Assembly (NCBI GenBank): GCA_016930515.1
Contig: JAFGGO010000108.1
Location: 32,224 to 96,223, forward strand
Source of the DNA: Promethearchaeota archaeon
Lineage (GTDB): Archaea > Asgardarchaeota > Lokiarchaeia > Sigyniarchaeales > SOKP01
Reading direction: 5' to 3'
DNA: 64,000 nt
Shown: positions 3,832 through 10,198 of the stretch, piece after piece
Layout: each line of letters opens with the position of its first letter
Numbering within the stretch: position 1 is the first letter of the stretch
Translations under genes and position numbers: made by a program
Notes under the pieces: model-generated
Databases searched by the model: none
Told to the model about the DNA's origin: nothing
Seen by the model: only the letters and a program-made list of their open reading frames with translations

Positions 3832-4263
3832 TTATAGTGGTTCAAATCCAAGATCAATTCGTGGATTCTCTCCTGGAAGGGGCGTTTCTAAAAACTTAAC
3901 TTTTACGGGTGTATCTATTTCGATTGTTTCTGGTTTTGACTCGTCCACTCCTACGAGTTGAGCAGACACCATCGGTCCTTCGTCAAGCTTAATAACGCTA
4001 AAACAGTACGGTTTATTTTTCGAATAACCCTTATCAACGAAAAATTTAGTTCCCACGCTAATGCACGTAAAGGCGGCTATTTTTCCCTTTCCCGACATTT
4101 CGGTCCATTCCATCTCAGTAGAACCACATTTCGTACAGAGTTTTCTTGGAGGTGCAAATAATTCCCCGCAACTTTTGCATTTCGAACCCATTAACTTCTT
4201 TTGGTTAATATAATCCAAGTAATTATATACAGTTATTTCTTTTTCAGACATTCTTTGCATCAC
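3832..4263 (-). CDS. DUF35 family Zn-ribbon/OB-fold protein (thiolase partner)
   Basis: CKSC...PPR..CTKC followed by an OB-fold; directly downstream of the thiolase. Confidence 0.9.
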   Translation of the reverse strand: MMQRMSEKEITVYNYLDYINQKKLMGSKCKSCGELFAPPRKLCTKCGSTEMEWTEMSGKGKIAAFTCISVGTKFFVDKGYSKNKPYCFSVIKLDEGPMVSAQLVGVDESKPETIEIDTPVKVKFLETPLPGENPRIDLGFEPL

Positions 4264-4264
4264 C

Positions 4265-5524
4265 TTATTTTTGATATATTGTGACCACGCAAGTTCCTCC
4301 AGAACCTCCTAAATTATGCGTTAAGGCTCTTTCGACATCAAATTTAACTTGACGGTTTCGTTCGGCTCGTCCTCTCATTTGCTTGAAAATCTCGACCGCT
4401 TGTGCGGCACCAGTGGCTCCAACGGGATGCCCCTTCGATTTCAAACCTCCAGAAGTGTTGATAGGGCGCACTCCGTCTCGTCGACTTTCCCCATTCTTCA
4501 CGGCTTCGGCTGCTTTTCCTTTCTCATAAAAACCCAAGTCTTCCATTGCTAATATTTCTGCAATCGTAAAGCAATCGTGTACCTCAGCAATTTGCATGTC
4601 TTTAGGTCCGAGACCGGACATTGAATAGGCTTGCTTTGAAGCTTCTTTCGTTGCGATAAAACTCGTTAAGGTATCTCGGTCGTGTAGCGATAATGCCGCG
4701 CTTCCCTGTCCCGTACCGGTGATCCATAGGGGCGTGTCCGTGAACTTTCTTGCCAACTCTTCCGAGGCGAGGAACACGCACGCTCCGCCGTCCGTAATTA
4801 ATGAACAATCGAACAATCGTAATGGAGAAGCGATATAAGGATTAGCCGAACTTGAAAGAAAATCAATCTCGTCTTTCCAGTAGGGGACTTGCTGACCTTG
4901 ACTTTCCGCTCTTTTTATTTTGCTTTCCATTATGTCTTTTATGCTTTGCTGCATTTGAGCAAAGGGGTTTTCCTTGCCGTTTTCATGGTTTTTTATTCCC
5001 ACTCTCATGAGATCTTCTGGTTTTGTGCCATATTTATGAAAGTGAGCGGACGCAACAGCTGCATATAATCCTGGGAATGTTGCTCCTGCAGGATATTCGT
5101 AAGTTGCATCTGCTGCTGCCGCCAATGCGTCAGTCACCATGGTCGTAGGTACTTCCGACATTGTTTCAATACCACATACGGCAATTAATTCGTGAACACC
5201 GGAAGCTATGCCCAAGATTGCTTGCCTCAAAGCTATTCCGCTGCTTGCGCAAGCACCTTCAAATCGGGGTGCTGGTTTTGGTGTAAGACCTACTAAATTC
5301 GCCATATTTGGACCTAAATGCCCCTGGTGATTAAATAGATCTGCAGTGAAATTTCCCACGTAGCAGGCGTCCACATCTTTGGCTTCAATACCATTATCAA
5401 CACTTTTCACGGCGTCAATCCAAGCATCGACCCACAAATCGGGATTCCTCTTTACGGGAAAGTGCTGTCCGAACTTACTCATTCCGGCACCGATCATCGC
5501 TACTTTTCTTGCTAATTTTCCCAT
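4265..5524 (-). CDS. Archaeal/SCP2-type thiolase (acetyl-CoA C-acyltransferase)
   Basis: EGACASS, AEVHDCF, SGGLKSKGHPVGATG and HNLGG motifs. Confidence 0.93.
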   Translation of the reverse strand: MGKLARKVAMIGAGMSKFGQHFPVKRNPDLWVDAWIDAVKSVDNGIEAKDVDACYVGNFTADLFNHQGHLGPNMANLVGLTPKPAPRFEGACASSGIALRQAILGIASGVHELIAVCGIETMSEVPTTMVTDALAAAADATYEYPAGATFPGLYAAVASAHFHKYGTKPEDLMRVGIKNHENGKENPFAQMQQSIKDIMESKIKRAESQGQQVPYWKDEIDFLSSSANPYIASPLRLFDCSLITDGGACVFLASEELARKFTDTPLWITGTGQGSAALSLHDRDTLTSFIATKEASKQAYSMSGLGPKDMQIAEVHDCFTIAEILAMEDLGFYEKGKAAEAVKNGESRRDGVRPINTSGGLKSKGHPVGATGAAQAVEIFKQMRGRAERNRQVKFDVERALTHNLGGSGGTCVVTIYQK

Positions 5525-5626: not shown

Positions 5627-7957
5627 TTAATTCCTTTCTTTTACTGGCATAAATATTTTAAAAAAATCCCGTTTTACCTTGACATTACCTTGAAAGTTAA
5701 CAATCATCCGATTACCTGAAAGGTTAACGGCGTGGAAACTACTGTAATTTCGCCCAAATCCTATAAAAGTAACAATATCTCCATTATTTAGATTAGAGTC
5801 CAATTTAGAGGAATCTTTTATTCTTAAAAAGGTTCCAGATTTCAAATCTTCGAGCGAATTGATATTATGAATCGTTGCGAAAGAAAAAGAACCCGAATAA
5901 TTTTCAAAAATGTAATCGTGAAGTTGCTTAAGTGGTTTTTTTTCGATTTTAATGGTTTCTCCCTTGATTCCCCTTTTTGCTATCAATAATGCCGCAATGG
6001 CGTGATCCACGAAACCTTTTGCTCTCACTTCGTTCACCAACTTGCCTTGTTGTAAATGAAACATTGCTTCTTTAGTCGTTTTAAATTCGTCTACTAAAAA
6101 GATATCGGGCGGTTCGAAGCGATTTTTTAGAGGTACATTTTCTTGTTCCATTCCTTCTAAATCGTTCAGGTTAGATTTTACGCAGGATAAATTATCGCAA
6201 GGTATACCAAAATATTCAATGAAAAAATCGATGATAAAATCGGAACCAGGACCGTGCCCCACGAAAATCTTGTTGATCAATTCCTTTTTTTCGCTAAAAA
6301 ACAACCCGAGTTCTTCTTCGATTTGCTGTTTTGCAACGCTTTGAGATCTAAGGTCCTTGATGTTGCTCTTTAAATTCACATACCATAGTTCTGGCAATTC
6401 TCCGTGTTGGATGAGACAAAATCCAAAATGTCTCGTCCCAGGATCTACGGCTAATATCACTTCTTTTTGCTTAAATGTAAAGAGGTTGATGTCTGCCTTT
6501 CCTTTAGATATTTTCATCAATGAATTGAAAAAAGGTTCGAACTCTTGGTTTTTAATTTGTAGAAAAAAATCATGAGCTTGACTTTGGTAAAGCACTTCGA
6601 TGTTGTATTTTTCGATTAAGGAAAAAAGATCGTGGTAATTTTCAACTTTCACAATGATATCTTGGCGAGGATCTATTTTAATTATTTTAACTTTCTCTAC
6701 TGCTTTTGCTATGGCTTGGGCAATGTCGTCCTCGTTCTTTCCCGAAAGAATGTCCACATGAAGTCCGTCTAGATGGAACGCTTCGTAAGCCGTCGAAGCA
6801 CCTAGTAAATCGAAAAGTCTCTTTTCTTGGTTCCCCCCTCTTGAGATTGTTAATTTTTTTCTCGTTCGTGGGAAGATTCTCACGCTTGCCGAGTTATATT
6901 TCCCCTTGCTAGGTGCATTTATCGTGATGACTCCTTTTAATTTTGAACTAATTACTTTAAATTCAATGAGATCTTCTAATTTCTCCTTTATGAAATCGAA
7001 TTGGAGATCGCCAAGAACTAATATGTTAATATTTTTATTGTTTACAAAGAAATCAAAGGATGTAATTACTTTTTTCAGGTTTTCAAGGATCTCTGTCGCA
7101 ATCTTAAATTTTTCGGGATCGTCAATATTAATTACGAATTCCTTGCGAGGATGTAAGTTGGACAAAAGCCCTGTTGTCTTGGGTGGTATGAATTTGCCAT
7201 CATGATATTGGGTTCCTAGTTCAAACTCATTTTTTACATTTAGGCTAATCGTGACAATTTCGCCTTCAAGTGCCTGCTTTAAAGGAGAATTAGCCAGAGA
7301 AACCACTTGTCTTATCTTGATTTTATCGTTTAACCATTGTCCTGATTTTAAGGCTCCAGAAGTAAGACCAATGTTCAGCATCTCGCCAAGACCTTTCCGT
7401 TGTTTAAATCCTAATATTACAAAGGCCAATTCAGAATTTTCAAACTCTCTTTTTTTAAGATGAACGGAAATCCTTTCAATTAAATTCTCAATCCCCGTGA
7501 TCTTTTTTGCAGATGTTTGGATTATCGGAATTCTTTCTTTCCCAAGCTTTTTTAACTCTGAATTGATTCTTTCAACATTCGAATTAGGTAAATCCATTTT
7601 TGTTGCTGCGATGATGATAGGTAAATCTCTTTCCCGAGCTTTTTCGTAAAGCCAGTGTGTTCTAGCTTGGAAACCGTCCGTTCCAGAAATAACCAGTACT
7701 AAAAGGTCTGCAAATTCCAATCCCAAGGCAATACCTCCTTGAAAGTCGGCGTGACCCGGAGTGTCTAAAAAATTAAGCGTTAAGCTTTGTCGTTTCAAAA
7801 CGAACTGAATGACCTTGAGGGACACCGTCGTACCGTGAGAAAGCTCGTAATCTAAATTATCGGGAAACTTTCCTACTATTGCCTCAATCAAGCTTGATTT
7901 GCCGTGTTGAGCGTGTCCAGCAACTAGAACATTTAAAATTCTTTCCTTAGTAACCAT
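5627..7957 (-). CDS. Translational GTPase (EF-G-like domains) fused to YqgF/RNase H-fold nuclease domain
   Basis: G1 GHAQHGKSS, G2 HGTTV, G3 DTPGH, G4 TKMD, G5 SAK. Also LGDLQFDFIKEKL (domain III-like) and FFNSLMKISKGKA (domain V-like), then ILAVDPGTRHFG / VDEFKTTKEA / DHAIAALLIA (YqgF-like). Confidence 0.75.
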   Translation of the reverse strand: MVTKERILNVLVAGHAQHGKSSLIEAIVGKFPDNLDYELSHGTTVSLKVIQFVLKRQSLTLNFLDTPGHADFQGGIALGLEFADLLVLVISGTDGFQARTHWLYEKARERDLPIIIAATKMDLPNSNVERINSELKKLGKERIPIIQTSAKKITGIENLIERISVHLKKREFENSELAFVILGFKQRKGLGEMLNIGLTSGALKSGQWLNDKIKIRQVVSLANSPLKQALEGEIVTISLNVKNEFELGTQYHDGKFIPPKTTGLLSNLHPRKEFVINIDDPEKFKIATEILENLKKVITSFDFFVNNKNINILVLGDLQFDFIKEKLEDLIEFKVISSKLKGVITINAPSKGKYNSASVRIFPRTRKKLTISRGGNQEKRLFDLLGASTAYEAFHLDGLHVDILSGKNEDDIAQAIAKAVEKVKIIKIDPRQDIIVKVENYHDLFSLIEKYNIEVLYQSQAHDFFLQIKNQEFEPFFNSLMKISKGKADINLFTFKQKEVILAVDPGTRHFGFCLIQHGELPELWYVNLKSNIKDLRSQSVAKQQIEEELGLFFSEKKELINKIFVGHGPGSDFIIDFFIEYFGIPCDNLSCVKSNLNDLEGMEQENVPLKNRFEPPDIFLVDEFKTTKEAMFHLQQGKLVNEVRAKGFVDHAIAALLIAKRGIKGETIKIEKKPLKQLHDYIFENYSGSFSFATIHNINSLEDLKSGTFLRIKDSSKLDSNLNNGDIVTFIGFGRNYSSFHAVNLSGNRMIVNFQGNVKVKRDFFKIFMPVKERN

Positions 7958-8008: not shown

Positions 8009-8485
8009 TTAAATCTCTCTTCGGAACCCTTCAATAGCTTCAAAATAATCCAAGATAGATTCCCTCAACTCAACGGCGGGAACAATGTTCCTAACTCTTC
8101 TTACATATTCAACAGCTTGAGACCAGCTCCATTCTGGATGTTCCTTTAATAACCACGCAACACAAATAGCTCCGCTCCGAGAAATACCCATAGCACAATG
8201 GACCAAAAGTTTTCTATTATCTTCTTTAATCTTCTTGTTGATAAAAGAGAGTACCTCCGCTATTATTTCGTGAGATGGATATGTGTTATCTGGAAAACCT
8301 CTAAATAAATATTCGAACTTTCCTCTAGGGGGTTGATAATGCTTGTATTCCATCAGGTTAACTATAGCAGTAATTCCTTCTTCTTCCATCTTCTTAAAAT
8401 TTAGCCTGGGCCAATACGCACCAATGTATAAATGTTCATTTATCTTGTATATCTCGTCAAGCTCGGGATTTTTATATTCTGACAA
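8009..8485 (-). CDS. Dual-specificity protein phosphatase
   Basis: HCAMGISRS (HCxxGxSRS) active-site loop; LYIG motif. Confidence 0.92.
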   Translation of the reverse strand: MSEYKNPELDEIYKINEHLYIGAYWPRLNFKKMEEEGITAIVNLMEYKHYQPPRGKFEYLFRGFPDNTYPSHEIIAEVLSFINKKIKEDNRKLLVHCAMGISRSGAICVAWLLKEHPEWSWSQAVEYVRRVRNIVPAVELRESILDYFEAIEGFRREI

Positions 8486-8602: not shown

Positions 8603-10198
8603 TTATAATTTCTTTTTTCGTATCCTATAGAGGACAAAAGAAATTCCACATAAACCCGCTAATCCAATTAACCAAGGTTCATAACCAGGAATTCCCCCAT
8701 TCTCTCCTGTTATTGCTGATGTATAGGCCGTAAAAGTGGGATCCTGCTCTATTGTCCCTCCAGCCCAATCTGGGAAGCAGGTAACATAATAAAATCCCAC
8801 ACTCACGCTAGATAGATGGCTTAAAATATAAGCAGCTAATAACACCCGAATACCGGCTCTTGTTTCAGTAAGATTTCCAATAAATCCCGCAATAAATGCG
8901 CCAAAACCCAAGATAGTTCCAAAATTAATAGGTGTCGAGACTAAGCCTCTACCCACAACAAATGTTGTAGATTCATGTTCTTCCGTGCCGTCGAGAGTAT
9001 AATTGCTCGTTTCATCAAAGTTTAACTTATAAACTGGATGTCCATTAATATAACAAGTGGCTGCTGGGATTTCATGTGTTATTTGACCGATTGTGGAACC
9101 AGTAGAATTTTGAAATCCTATTTCGCTTCCTGAACCTTCGTCTATGTTGAATCTCATGATATTTACCGTATTGATAACTGCAAGACTAAAACCTGGATAT
9201 ATCCCAAATCCACTTAACCTTGCTCCGATTCCTCCTCCAGCAGAATTGTTATAGTAACCTAGATAATAACCGCTACCTAAATTAAGAGAATCTCCTCCAA
9301 TAGCTGTAGAGATAATTTCTTCCCATTGTGAAAATACCCACAGATTAGTCATTTCACCAATGTTGTATTTGACTCTCGTAGTGACTTTTCCGTTATCTAT
9401 TGTAGTGATATATGTGAAATTGAGCTCCTCTATGACAGAGGCCGCAACAATGTTTCCCAAATTAGTAGACGAACTATCTAAACCTGCTGATACGCTTAAT
9501 GGTTGCCATAAAGTAAATACATTTTTATACGACATTCCATAGCTATATTCTGCACCAGTTGATGTTGTAGTTTTTTTCAAATTTATTGGTATTGCTTCAG
9601 TTTCAATTGAAGGATCGACGTGCATCCACGAAGGGGCTCCTGCATCATTAAGTCTTTCGTTAAGTAAAAGTCTATGATATCCTGAATAAAACGACCATCC
9701 CAAGAACATGTGATTTCTATTGCTAGGAAGTTCCGCTGGATCTGTTTTATAATCATAGTATGCCATCAATCCTAAAAACCTGTTCACAACAAATAAATGC
9801 GTCGCTGGATCGCCTCCAGGATTAAAATGCTGAACTAACAGCTGAAATGGTGCACACGCATATTCGCTTGAGTTATATCCATTGTCAAGATCCCAAGAAA
9901 AATTCTGCATTGCAATATATAGGGATTGAACACCCCCAACATTTGTATAGGTTTGATAGAACTTTGAATCAACATCTGTGATTGAATCGTTGTGAGTTGC
10001 TGTTCCGTTATAAACGCCGGGTTTGTAATCTTCTTCTAATTGAAATCCTAAAAAATCGTATGACACATCCCAATATTCTTCTGCAAACGAATGGTCGTAG
10101 AGGTTCTCTCCTGCAGCAGCTACTAATGGTGTGGCAAACGAAAGCATTAAAATGGATACAATGGTCATGCTTAATAATTTCTGTTTAAAATTTGCCAT
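8603..10198 (-). CDS. Secreted cell-surface glycoprotein with Loki-CTERM-like anchor
   Basis: N-terminal signal peptide, many N-x-S/T sequons, and C-terminal IPGY + TM helix + basic tail RIRKKKL. Confidence 0.8.
   Translation of the reverse strand: MANFKQKLLSMTIVSILMLSFATPLVAAAGENLYDHSFAEEYWDVSYDFLGFQLEEDYKPGVYNGTATHNDSITDVDSKFYQTYTNVGGVQSLYIAMQNFSWDLDNGYNSSEYACAPFQLLVQHFNPGGDPATHLFVVNRFLGLMAYYDYKTDPAELPSNRNHMFLGWSFYSGYHRLLLNERLNDAGAPSWMHVDPSIETEAIPINLKKTTTSTGAEYSYGMSYKNVFTLWQPLSVSAGLDSSSTNLGNIVAASVIEELNFTYITTIDNGKVTTRVKYNIGEMTNLWVFSQWEEIISTAIGGDSLNLGSGYYLGYYNNSAGGGIGARLSGFGIYPGFSLAVINTVNIMRFNIDEGSGSEIGFQNSTGSTIGQITHEIPAATCYINGHPVYKLNFDETSNYTLDGTEEHESTTFVVGRGLVSTPINFGTILGFGAFIAGFIGNLTETRAGIRVLLAAYILSHLSSVSVGFYYVTCFPDWAGGTIEQDPTFTAYTSAITGENGGIPGYEPWLIGLAGLCGISFVLYRIRKKKL

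Follow-up and report, generated by a model that had tools for sequence, protein, structure and literature searches.

A translational GTPase fused to a YqgF/RuvX-type domain in Lokiarchaeia: a candidate ribosome-docked RNA nuclease

Introduction

What a translation-factor GTPase would do with a nuclease domain of its own was the question raised by a gene at positions 5627–7957 (minus strand) of a Lokiarchaeial DNA stretch. The stretch, hereafter the window, comprises 64,000 nucleotides (nt) of a 96-kb contig; the host genome measures 4.0 Mb and is 94% complete. The gene encodes a protein of 776 amino acids (aa), in which the domains of a translational GTPase are followed by a YqgF/RuvX-type RNase H-fold domain and a small beta barrel. 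Nuclease domains are not known from translational GTPases. A first-pass annotation had read the product as a GTP-gated, ribosome-targeted RNase of ribosomal RNA (rRNA) maturation or stalled-ribosome quality control. The first half of this claim stood as the best inference, while an essential role in rRNA maturation turned out to be unlikely: most related genomes do without the gene, even one of the same genus in which the flanking genes are identical. Our own judgement leans towards a GTP-gated, ribosome-docked RNA nuclease in an accessory role.

Results and Discussion

Integrity of the reading frame

The open reading frame (ORF) was found to run unbroken from its ATG start, as had been claimed, on the evidence of both the ORF list and the translation, and every motif quoted in the first-pass annotation was present at its expected place. 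Full-length relatives of the 776-aa protein were recorded at 57–88% identity. The 98 full-length relatives that were collected came from independent assemblies and included one from the 1.69-Mb genome of the cultured Methanopyrus kandleri AV19. The annotation had also considered an assembly chimera, to which a mis-called ORF may be added; this explanation was ruled out by the 98 relatives, drawn from many assemblies and one complete cultured genome, and by the 30 genomic copies of the gene, which held no stops, so that its probability was taken as practically nil.

The GTPase body

The N-terminal part was identified as a translation-factor G domain, in agreement with the original reading. Pfam GTP_EFTU matched residues 5–167 with 101.3 bits, where the cut-off is 26.5. 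The motifs comprised the P-loop at 14–21 within GHAQHGKSS (14–22), HGTTV at 41–45 with the switch I residue T44, DTPGH at 65–69, TKMD at 119–122 and SAK at 149–151. The catalytic His69 of DTPGH, encoded at nt 7751–7753, was invariant in all 98 relatives, as were D65, G68, K120, D122 and S149. By this G domain, the catalytic His and the domain II barrel, the protein belongs to the translational GTPase superfamily. Profile matches of IF-2, SelB and LepA extended into domain II, up to residues 208–240, and a precomputed match to PF22042 (EF-G_D2) was present on the Methanopyrus members.

The whole protein was modeled by AlphaFold2 on 28 relatives, with a predicted local distance difference test score (pLDDT) of 74 and a predicted template modeling score (pTM) of 0.55. 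In the model, the G domain was followed by a barrel (178–257) and by modules at 272–340, 343–428 and 434–493, the order and topology of which were those of EF-G domains II, III, IV and V. The best whole-model matches in Foldseek were LepA, EF-G and aEF-2, with E-values from 1e-27 to 1e-22 over 600–745 columns. At a VIA-align Z of 32.3, EF-G was aligned over 334 residues at 3.0 Å, and aEF-2 over 426 residues at 5.2 Å (model 1–601); the latter alignment spanned the IV-like module.

EF-G-type domains III and V, which had been claimed from motif segments, were confirmed, since the model topology, the structural alignments and weak sequence matches agreed. Domain III carried the EF-G/RF3-like motif LGDLQFDFIKEKL at residues 315–327, and the family profile over residues 262–500 matched domain III of TetO/TetM with E-values of 0.0016–0.002, EF-2 and RF3 matching more weakly. 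Domain V carried the EF-G-like motif FFNSLMKISKGKADINLF at residues 476–493; when aligned by hhalign to the aEF-2 of the host itself (E 1e-3), its SKGKA was paired with TSGKA of aEF-2. Weak Pfam matches were also observed in domain V, to EFG_C in 2 members and to RF3_C in 5.

Domain II and a domain IV-like module, neither of them named in the annotation, were present as well. The latter is likely of the EF-G type, as judged by its modeled fold and by a weak hhalign match that placed the end of the module together with domain V (residues 403–490) onto aEF-2 598–698; from its sequence it was read as a compact domain IV devoid of GGxGQ-type tip loops. As modeled, residues 1–495 thus form a compact translational GTPase composed of domains G, II, III, IV-like and V.

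The resulting body shares with EF-G and aEF-2 (also with Tet(M)/Tet(O) and Snu114) the modeled domain order, in which domain IV is represented by the IV-like module, a structural Z of 32 and the catalytic His in DxPGH. It differs from EF-G/aEF-2 in its length of about 495 residues versus about 700, in the absence of G', in the compact IV-like module and in the nuclease domain and barrel that extend past domain V. LepA (EF4), the top Foldseek match with an E-value of 3e-27, and BipA/TypA are likewise compact EF-G paralogues, with no G' and with an extra C-terminal domain past domain V; however, neither has a domain IV, and the extra domain is in neither case a nuclease. Both are bacterial or organellar (PMC4342817).

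The P-loop and the cation site

The P-loop Gln, in which the first-pass annotation had seen a sign of altered activation, proved to be real but specific to the Loki lineage rather than a trait of the family: Q17 was found in 80 of the 98 relatives, whereas 13 deep-branching members had Asp there. Two Loki members with Ser at this position also carried Asn in place of the switch I Gly. The P-loop Asp and the switch I Gly positions bind a monovalent cation in most translational GTPases (PMC4342817). Judging by sequence, the cation site seems to have been lost within Lokiarchaeia, because the deep-branching members retain the canonical Asp.

The YqgF/RuvX domain and its active site

The annotation had placed a YqgF-type domain with retained acidic motifs at about 5970–6460, close to the boundaries found here (nt 5948–6472). 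This assignment held: Pfam RuvX (PF03652) matched all 28 members tested, with a best E-value of 1.9e-8, and the Asgardarchaeum abyssi orthologue, at 32.4 bits, exceeded the Pfam cut-off of 29.2. The YqgF motifs were ILAVDPGTRHFG (501–512), KIFVG (563–567), VDEFKTTKEA (622–631) and DHAIAALLIA (651–660). More distant comparisons were less productive. No RuvX chain was retrieved among solved structures by phmmer with one RuvX domain or by hmmsearch with the domain profile, and when the domain profile was set by hhalign against a single bacterial RuvX, nothing but the DE..TT motif could be aligned (E 0.13). The fusion protein was the only RuvX-like match in the host genome. To our knowledge, archaea are otherwise devoid of RuvX.

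A model of residues 496–776 (pLDDT 74.6) was compared with 48,161 Protein Data Bank (PDB) representatives by VIA-align. The highest scores were obtained for Tex (Z 11.9, 126 aa, 3.1 Å) and for YqgF of Deinococcus radiodurans (Z 11.2), followed by Spt6 (10.4), 1vhx of Bacillus subtilis (10.1), RuvX of Mycobacterium tuberculosis (7ess, 10.0) and YqgF of E. coli (1nmn, 9.4), with RuvC-type resolvases interspersed among them. Standalone YqgF clusters of the Atlas gave TM scores of 0.73–0.75 to the nuclease-domain model. The modeled domain accordingly has an RNase H fold of the YqgF type.

Residues D505, G507, G512, E624, E630, D651 and H652 were invariant in 98 of 98 relatives. In the active site, Asp505 lies in beta1, beta4 (KIFVG) carries no acid, Glu624 stands just past beta5 and Asp651 opens the last helix; the codons of D505, E624 and D651-H652 are at nt 6443–6445, 6086–6088 and 6002–6007, respectively. 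A beta1 Asp, a Glu after beta5, an Asp in the last helix and no beta4 acid constitute the YqgF arrangement (PMC3985635, PMC9601230), and the active site thus has the layout of YqgF, not that of RuvC. Along with the fold (Z 9.4–11.2) and this layout, the family shares with the D. radiodurans and E. coli YqgF proteins (PF03652) a motif series of DxG in beta1, DE..(S/T)T..EA, and D..AA in the last helix. The bacterial YqgF/RuvX proteins stand alone and measure about 140 aa, whereas the domain described here is fused, is marked by an invariant His next to the final Asp and bears an insertion in Loki members.

That insertion (residues 597–617, window 6107–6169, minus strand) is variable and was located between the second helix and beta5. 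It measures 20–30 residues in most Loki members, often with a C-x4-C pair (IPCD..SC), and was modeled with low confidence. The remaining Loki members, as well as the proteins of Asgardarchaeum and Methanopyrus, have a short insertion or none.

Where the overall identity of two lineages was only about 30%, the G domain was 42–49% identical and the RuvX domain 35–46%, compared with 19–36% for domains II–V. Since the G and RuvX domains were the best conserved across this deep divergence, it was concluded that selection acts on both catalytic centres.

These results bear on whether the domain cuts nucleic acid at all. The protein might be a ribosome-associated GTPase, acting as a rescue, hibernation or assembly factor, the YqgF domain of which binds RNA without cutting, in the manner of Tex and Spt6. 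Tex was the best structural match and Spt6 also scored high; the succession of YqgF domain, helices and barrel loosely recalls the YqgF, helix-hairpin-helix (HhH) and S1 order of Tex, and nuclease activity had been shown neither for Tex nor for YqgF as of 2014 (PMC3985635). However, D505, E624 and D651 are invariant in all 98 proteins across the same distant lineages, while Tex has no third carboxylate (PMC3985635), and the strand-1 acid marks the enzymatic clades of the RNase H fold (PMC6514570). Furthermore, a precedent for RNA cutting by a YqgF domain exists in D. radiodurans YqgF, which ranked second among the structural matches and is the nearest standalone relative with a solved structure: it works as a monomeric, Mn-dependent exo- and endonuclease on RNA and lacks junction-resolving activity (PMC9601230). 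A purely RNA-binding protein was on balance considered unlikely.

If the domain does cut, its substrate might instead be DNA. The fusion protein would then be a GTP-regulated resolvase or branched-DNA nuclease off the ribosome, the EF-G-like body of which serves as a switch or clamp. In vitro, junctions are resolved by RuvX of M. tuberculosis and of Helicobacter pylori (PMC9601230). Z values of 10–11 were reached by RuvC, MOC1 and poxvirus resolvases, Snu114 of the spliceosome is an example of an EF-2 body reused away from the ribosome, and one fragment of the family has been named 'Holliday junction resolvase RuvX' by NCBI. Nevertheless, resolvases are dimeric, when here a single nuclease domain is tethered to a large factor of the monomer type; His69, which is ribosome-activated in translational GTPases, is invariant, and no DNA-repair genes are conserved beside the fusion gene. 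We therefore rate a DNA enzyme as quite unlikely.

The linker and the C-terminal barrel

The small beta-rich tail of the first-pass annotation was recovered as a barrel at residues 701–776, separated from the YqgF domain by a helical linker. Atlas rows of Tex could be aligned past the YqgF domain through the helices, up to residue 201 of the 496–776 model. Profile searches of the barrel gave noise and returned no Pfam or PDB sequence relative, and an Atlas feature search with residues 672–776 yielded no usable match. Structure matches to a retroviral integrase core with its SH3-like C-terminal domain gave a hint that the modeled barrel may be SH3-like. The Tex_N, HHH and S1 profiles had no match in the 776-aa protein; all the same, both Tex and Spt6, the YqgF-like domains of which matched this family, have a nucleic-acid-binding barrel downstream, and the family has a barrel at that place too. 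A seemingly standalone RuvX-plus-barrel protein of 253 aa (P0124) was rejected, as it had been cut by a contig end.

Phylogenetic position

A maximum-likelihood tree was built from the G and II domains (38 rows, 267 columns), using family members, the six canonical factors of the host, those of A. abyssi, and EF-G, EF-G2, LepA, BipA, EF-Tu and IF2 of two Planctomycetota genomes. IF2, EF1/SelB and EF2 were recovered as starred clades, and the ten family members formed a fourth one outside them with 100/99 support, in which the Methanopyri were sister to the Asgard members. The family adjoined EF2 with a support of only 77/61, and the approximately unbiased (AU) test did not reject its grouping with IF2 (p 0.46) or with EF1/SelB (p 0.125).

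The matches of the NCBIfam models of IF-2, LepA, Tet, SelB and EF-G were confined to the G domain and the beginning of domain II. The IF-2 model TIGR00487 scored best, at 83 bits against 424.4 (residues 9–208); TIGR01393 (lepA) reached 71.7 against 533.9 (residues 8–207 only), the EF-G subfamily model 65.9 against 583 and TIGR00484 30.7 against 659.4. The 776-aa protein was assigned to none of the named subfamilies, because all of these scores fell far under the cut-offs; PF11987, which covers the IF2 domains after II, had no match in it either. A protein that did match the non-G part of the family, P0133, was a 660-aa truncated EF-2-like protein from an ENA metagenome, to which the aEF-2 model aligned only up to position 462 of 720; it was the sole match from outside the family (E 4e-4, through domains II–III) and adds to the weak sequence evidence for an EF-G-type body.

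In a survey of 2015, which distinguished 57 subfamilies, seven were archaeal (aEF2, aEF1A, aGTPBP, aIF2g, aSelB, aSelBL and aIF5B) and none nuclease-bearing; the word 'nuclease' is absent from its text (PMC4342817). The present family would be the eighth archaeal subfamily of translational GTPases. Literature searches for a GTPase-YqgF fusion, for the M. kandleri accession and for an Asgard GTPase-YqgF protein found no paper, in line with the earlier statement that no characterised fusion of this kind was known; the domains are individually known and their combination is uncharacterised.

The host genome also encodes aEF1A, aEF-2, an aEF-2 paralogue, aIF5B, aIF2-gamma and a SelB-like protein, and the fusion protein is hence an extra factor. 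The second EF-2 of the host (C40:28767-31019, 750 aa) has a counterpart in a second genome (G401, C96). It scored 643.7 bits against the aEF-2 equivalog cut-off of 738.45, formed its own starred pair in the tree and probably corresponds to the Asgard paralogue of EF-2 treated in PMC6143161. The aIF2-gamma of the host (C70:20292-21890) measures 532 aa, and its family match begins only at residue 116; the N-terminal extension resembles helix-hairpin-helix repeats (GIGKTTADRL, IKGFSEAKA), whereas the Asgardarchaeum copy has an ordinary frame of 434 aa.

Distribution and dispensability

An exhaustive HMMER search of a profile of the non-G part against 1.84 billion representatives returned 15 proteins, which corresponded to about seven full-length clusters and some fragments. 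They came from Promethearchaeota/Lokiarchaeia, from 'Asgardarchaeia'/Odin-like metagenome-assembled genomes (MAGs) and from Methanopyrus. The Methanopyri clade consisted of four clusters at 90% identity and included the protein of M. kandleri AV19 (AAM02777.1, WP_011019932.1, Q8TV36), annotated as 'Translation initiation factor 2, GTPase'. Of the 400 Asgard species genomes surveyed, 36 carried the gene, including 33 of the 134 in the family of the window and one in each of two further families; of the 90 high-quality Asgard genomes, it was present in 11. Outside a single Lokiarchaeial family, the gene was seen only in a few further Asgard lineages and in the Methanopyri.

Presence and absence could be compared within one genus. 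A same-genus genome, 96% complete, holds, in this order, the oxidoreductase, DUF1667, phosphatase, thiolase and DUF35 genes that flank the fusion gene in the window, and the fusion gene itself is absent. The neighbours are 68–89% identical, and only 97 nt stand at the expected place of the gene; alignment of this intergenic DNA with the flanks in the window was uninformative as to a gene remnant, the DNA being AT-rich. The fusion gene is dispensable, as the same-genus locus keeps its neighbours without the GTPase. Being dispensable and narrowly distributed, it cannot represent a general archaeal mechanism.

A distribution of this kind could also suggest a defence or toxin-like effector, that is, a GTPase-guided nuclease which cuts rRNA or tRNA upon infection or stress and so halts translation. 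The patchy occurrence and the clean presence or absence within one genus would agree with it. On the contrary, the 776-aa protein matched no PADLOC model, and two of its relatives matched LeoA only generically, through the G domain; the neighbourhood is a conserved housekeeping one with no mobile-element or immunity gene alongside, and the gene is single-copy and occupies the same position across genera, which fits descent with losses. An effector of defence was judged very unlikely.

Proposed function

In our proposal, residues 1–495 would settle into the factor-binding site of the ribosome; there, GTP hydrolysis via His69 would be triggered by the sarcin-ricin loop, and the nuclease and the barrel would be held in or near the cleft between the A site and the GTPase centre. 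It is in this cleft that LepA and BipA carry their C-terminal domains. The GTP form would bind a ribosome, or a subunit, whose A site is vacant; RNA would then be gripped by the basic IV-like module and the barrel, and the nuclease would cut it there, be it mRNA, tRNA or an rRNA precursor, while GTP hydrolysis would set the time of release. The factor site is the most likely docking place, because the catalytic machinery of a translational GTPase is intact, the body plan is that of EF-G and two basic modules may face RNA. The role is probably conditional, given that the gene is dispensable, and would concern, for example, rescue, quality control or condition-dependent processing rather than core maturation.

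Several observations weigh against this proposal. The patchy distribution would fit many possible roles. In some bacteria, Holliday junctions are the substrate of YqgF homologues (PMC9601230), and the YqgF domains of Tex and Spt6 are not known as nucleases (PMC3985635). Snu114, with a Z of 31.7, was tied with EF-G, and relatives of EF-2 can act off the ribosome. The full model was of moderate quality (pLDDT 74, pTM 0.55), with an unreliable relative placement of domains, and domain IV was assigned from model topology and weak alignments. The RuvX score of the 776-aa protein itself was 18.7 bits, under the Pfam cut-off, and the Loki members have lost the cation-binding P-loop Asp of most translational GTPases (PMC4342817).

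Known systems in which an NTPase or a state of the ribosome places an endonuclease on ribosome-bound RNA resemble the proposal. Complexes of the 80S type, driven by eIF5B, license the cleavage of pre-18S rRNA by Nob1, and Cue2 and SmrB act at collided ribosomes. These are separate polypeptides, and their nucleases have unrelated folds (PIN or SMR), whereas here the GTPase and the nuclease are parts of one chain. In its most specific form, which we regard as possible but doubtful, an eighth archaeal translational GTPase subfamily would bring its own endonuclease into the factor site and cut ribosome-bound mRNA, tRNA or rRNA where ribosomes are stalled, vacant or immature. Should this be true, a translation-factor GTPase with an integral nuclease would have been found for the first time, one chain would do the work of eIF5B and Nob1 or of a collision sensor and an SMR protein, and a nuclease would be aimed in a new way, by elongation-factor mimicry. 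If function follows the anatomy, the family would offer a testable handle on the cutting of ribosome-bound RNA in archaea, where the enzymes are poorly known. M. kandleri is cultured, so that both the protein (Q8TV36) and native ribosomes are obtainable.

Gene neighbourhood

The features of the gene and its upstream neighbour are given in Table 1.

Table 1. Coordinates of the fusion gene, its domains and the upstream gene in the window.
Feature	Residues	Position (nt)	Strand	Basis and remarks
Whole gene	1–776	5627..7957	minus	776 codons and stop (stop codon 5627–5629); ORF list and translation
G domain	1–175	7433..7957	minus	Pfam GTP_EFTU, E 6.4e-29; no G' insertion
Domain II, beta barrel	176–262	7172..7432	minus	all-beta in model (178–257); inside EF-G/aEF-2 structural alignments
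Domain III	268–340	6938..7156	minus	beta-alpha-beta-beta-alpha-beta; holds LGDLQF motif; EF-G alignment Z 32.3
Domain IV-like compact module (likely)	341–432	6662..6937	minus	beta4-alpha-beta-alpha-beta in model; basic, isoelectric point (pI) ~9.8
Domain V	433–495	6473..6661	minus	beta-alpha-beta-beta-alpha-beta; holds SKGKA motif
YqgF/RuvX-type RNase H-fold domain	496–670	5948..6472	minus	Pfam RuvX, structure matches, invariant acids
Helical linker	671–700	5858..5947	minus	low model confidence
C-terminal small beta barrel	701–776	5630..5857	minus	five strands, pLDDT 87–91; basic, pI ~10
Dual-specificity phosphatase, upstream neighbour		8009..8485	minus	51 nt from the GTPase start; Pfam DSPc, E 5.4e-19

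The gene order in Loki genomes was fixed as FAD oxidoreductase, DUF1667, dual-specificity phosphatase and GTPase-nuclease, often followed by the thiolase and its DUF35 partner. The gene neighbourhoods in Asgardarchaeum-like genomes and in Methanopyrus were unrelated to this locus. The phosphatase is syntenic with the fusion gene at most Loki loci and was considered as its partner. It is probably not one and is not tied to the fusion gene, since it persists at the same-genus locus that has no GTPase and does not adjoin the fusion gene in the distant lineages.

Directly downstream of the fusion gene lies a pair composed of a thiolase and a DUF35/ChsH2-type OB-fold/zinc-ribbon protein (window 3832–5524, minus strand), with one base between the two; in the genome that has no GTPase gene, this pair follows the phosphatase. 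In the Methanopyrus sp. locus (L044:8229-9921), the fusion gene overlaps by 4 nt a downstream ORF of 227 aa with no Pfam match, and a dCTP deaminase gene and a gene of the metallo-beta-lactamase fold come next, each overlapping its predecessor. This arrangement may be an operon and is not common to the Asgard loci.

Between DUF1667 and the phosphatase, the window contains a gene for a 531-aa protein (8603–10198, minus strand) that had no Pfam match; its N-terminal segment resembles a signal sequence and its C-terminal one a membrane anchor. The gap between DUF1667 and the phosphatase is much shorter in most related loci, so the gene looks like a lineage-specific insertion.

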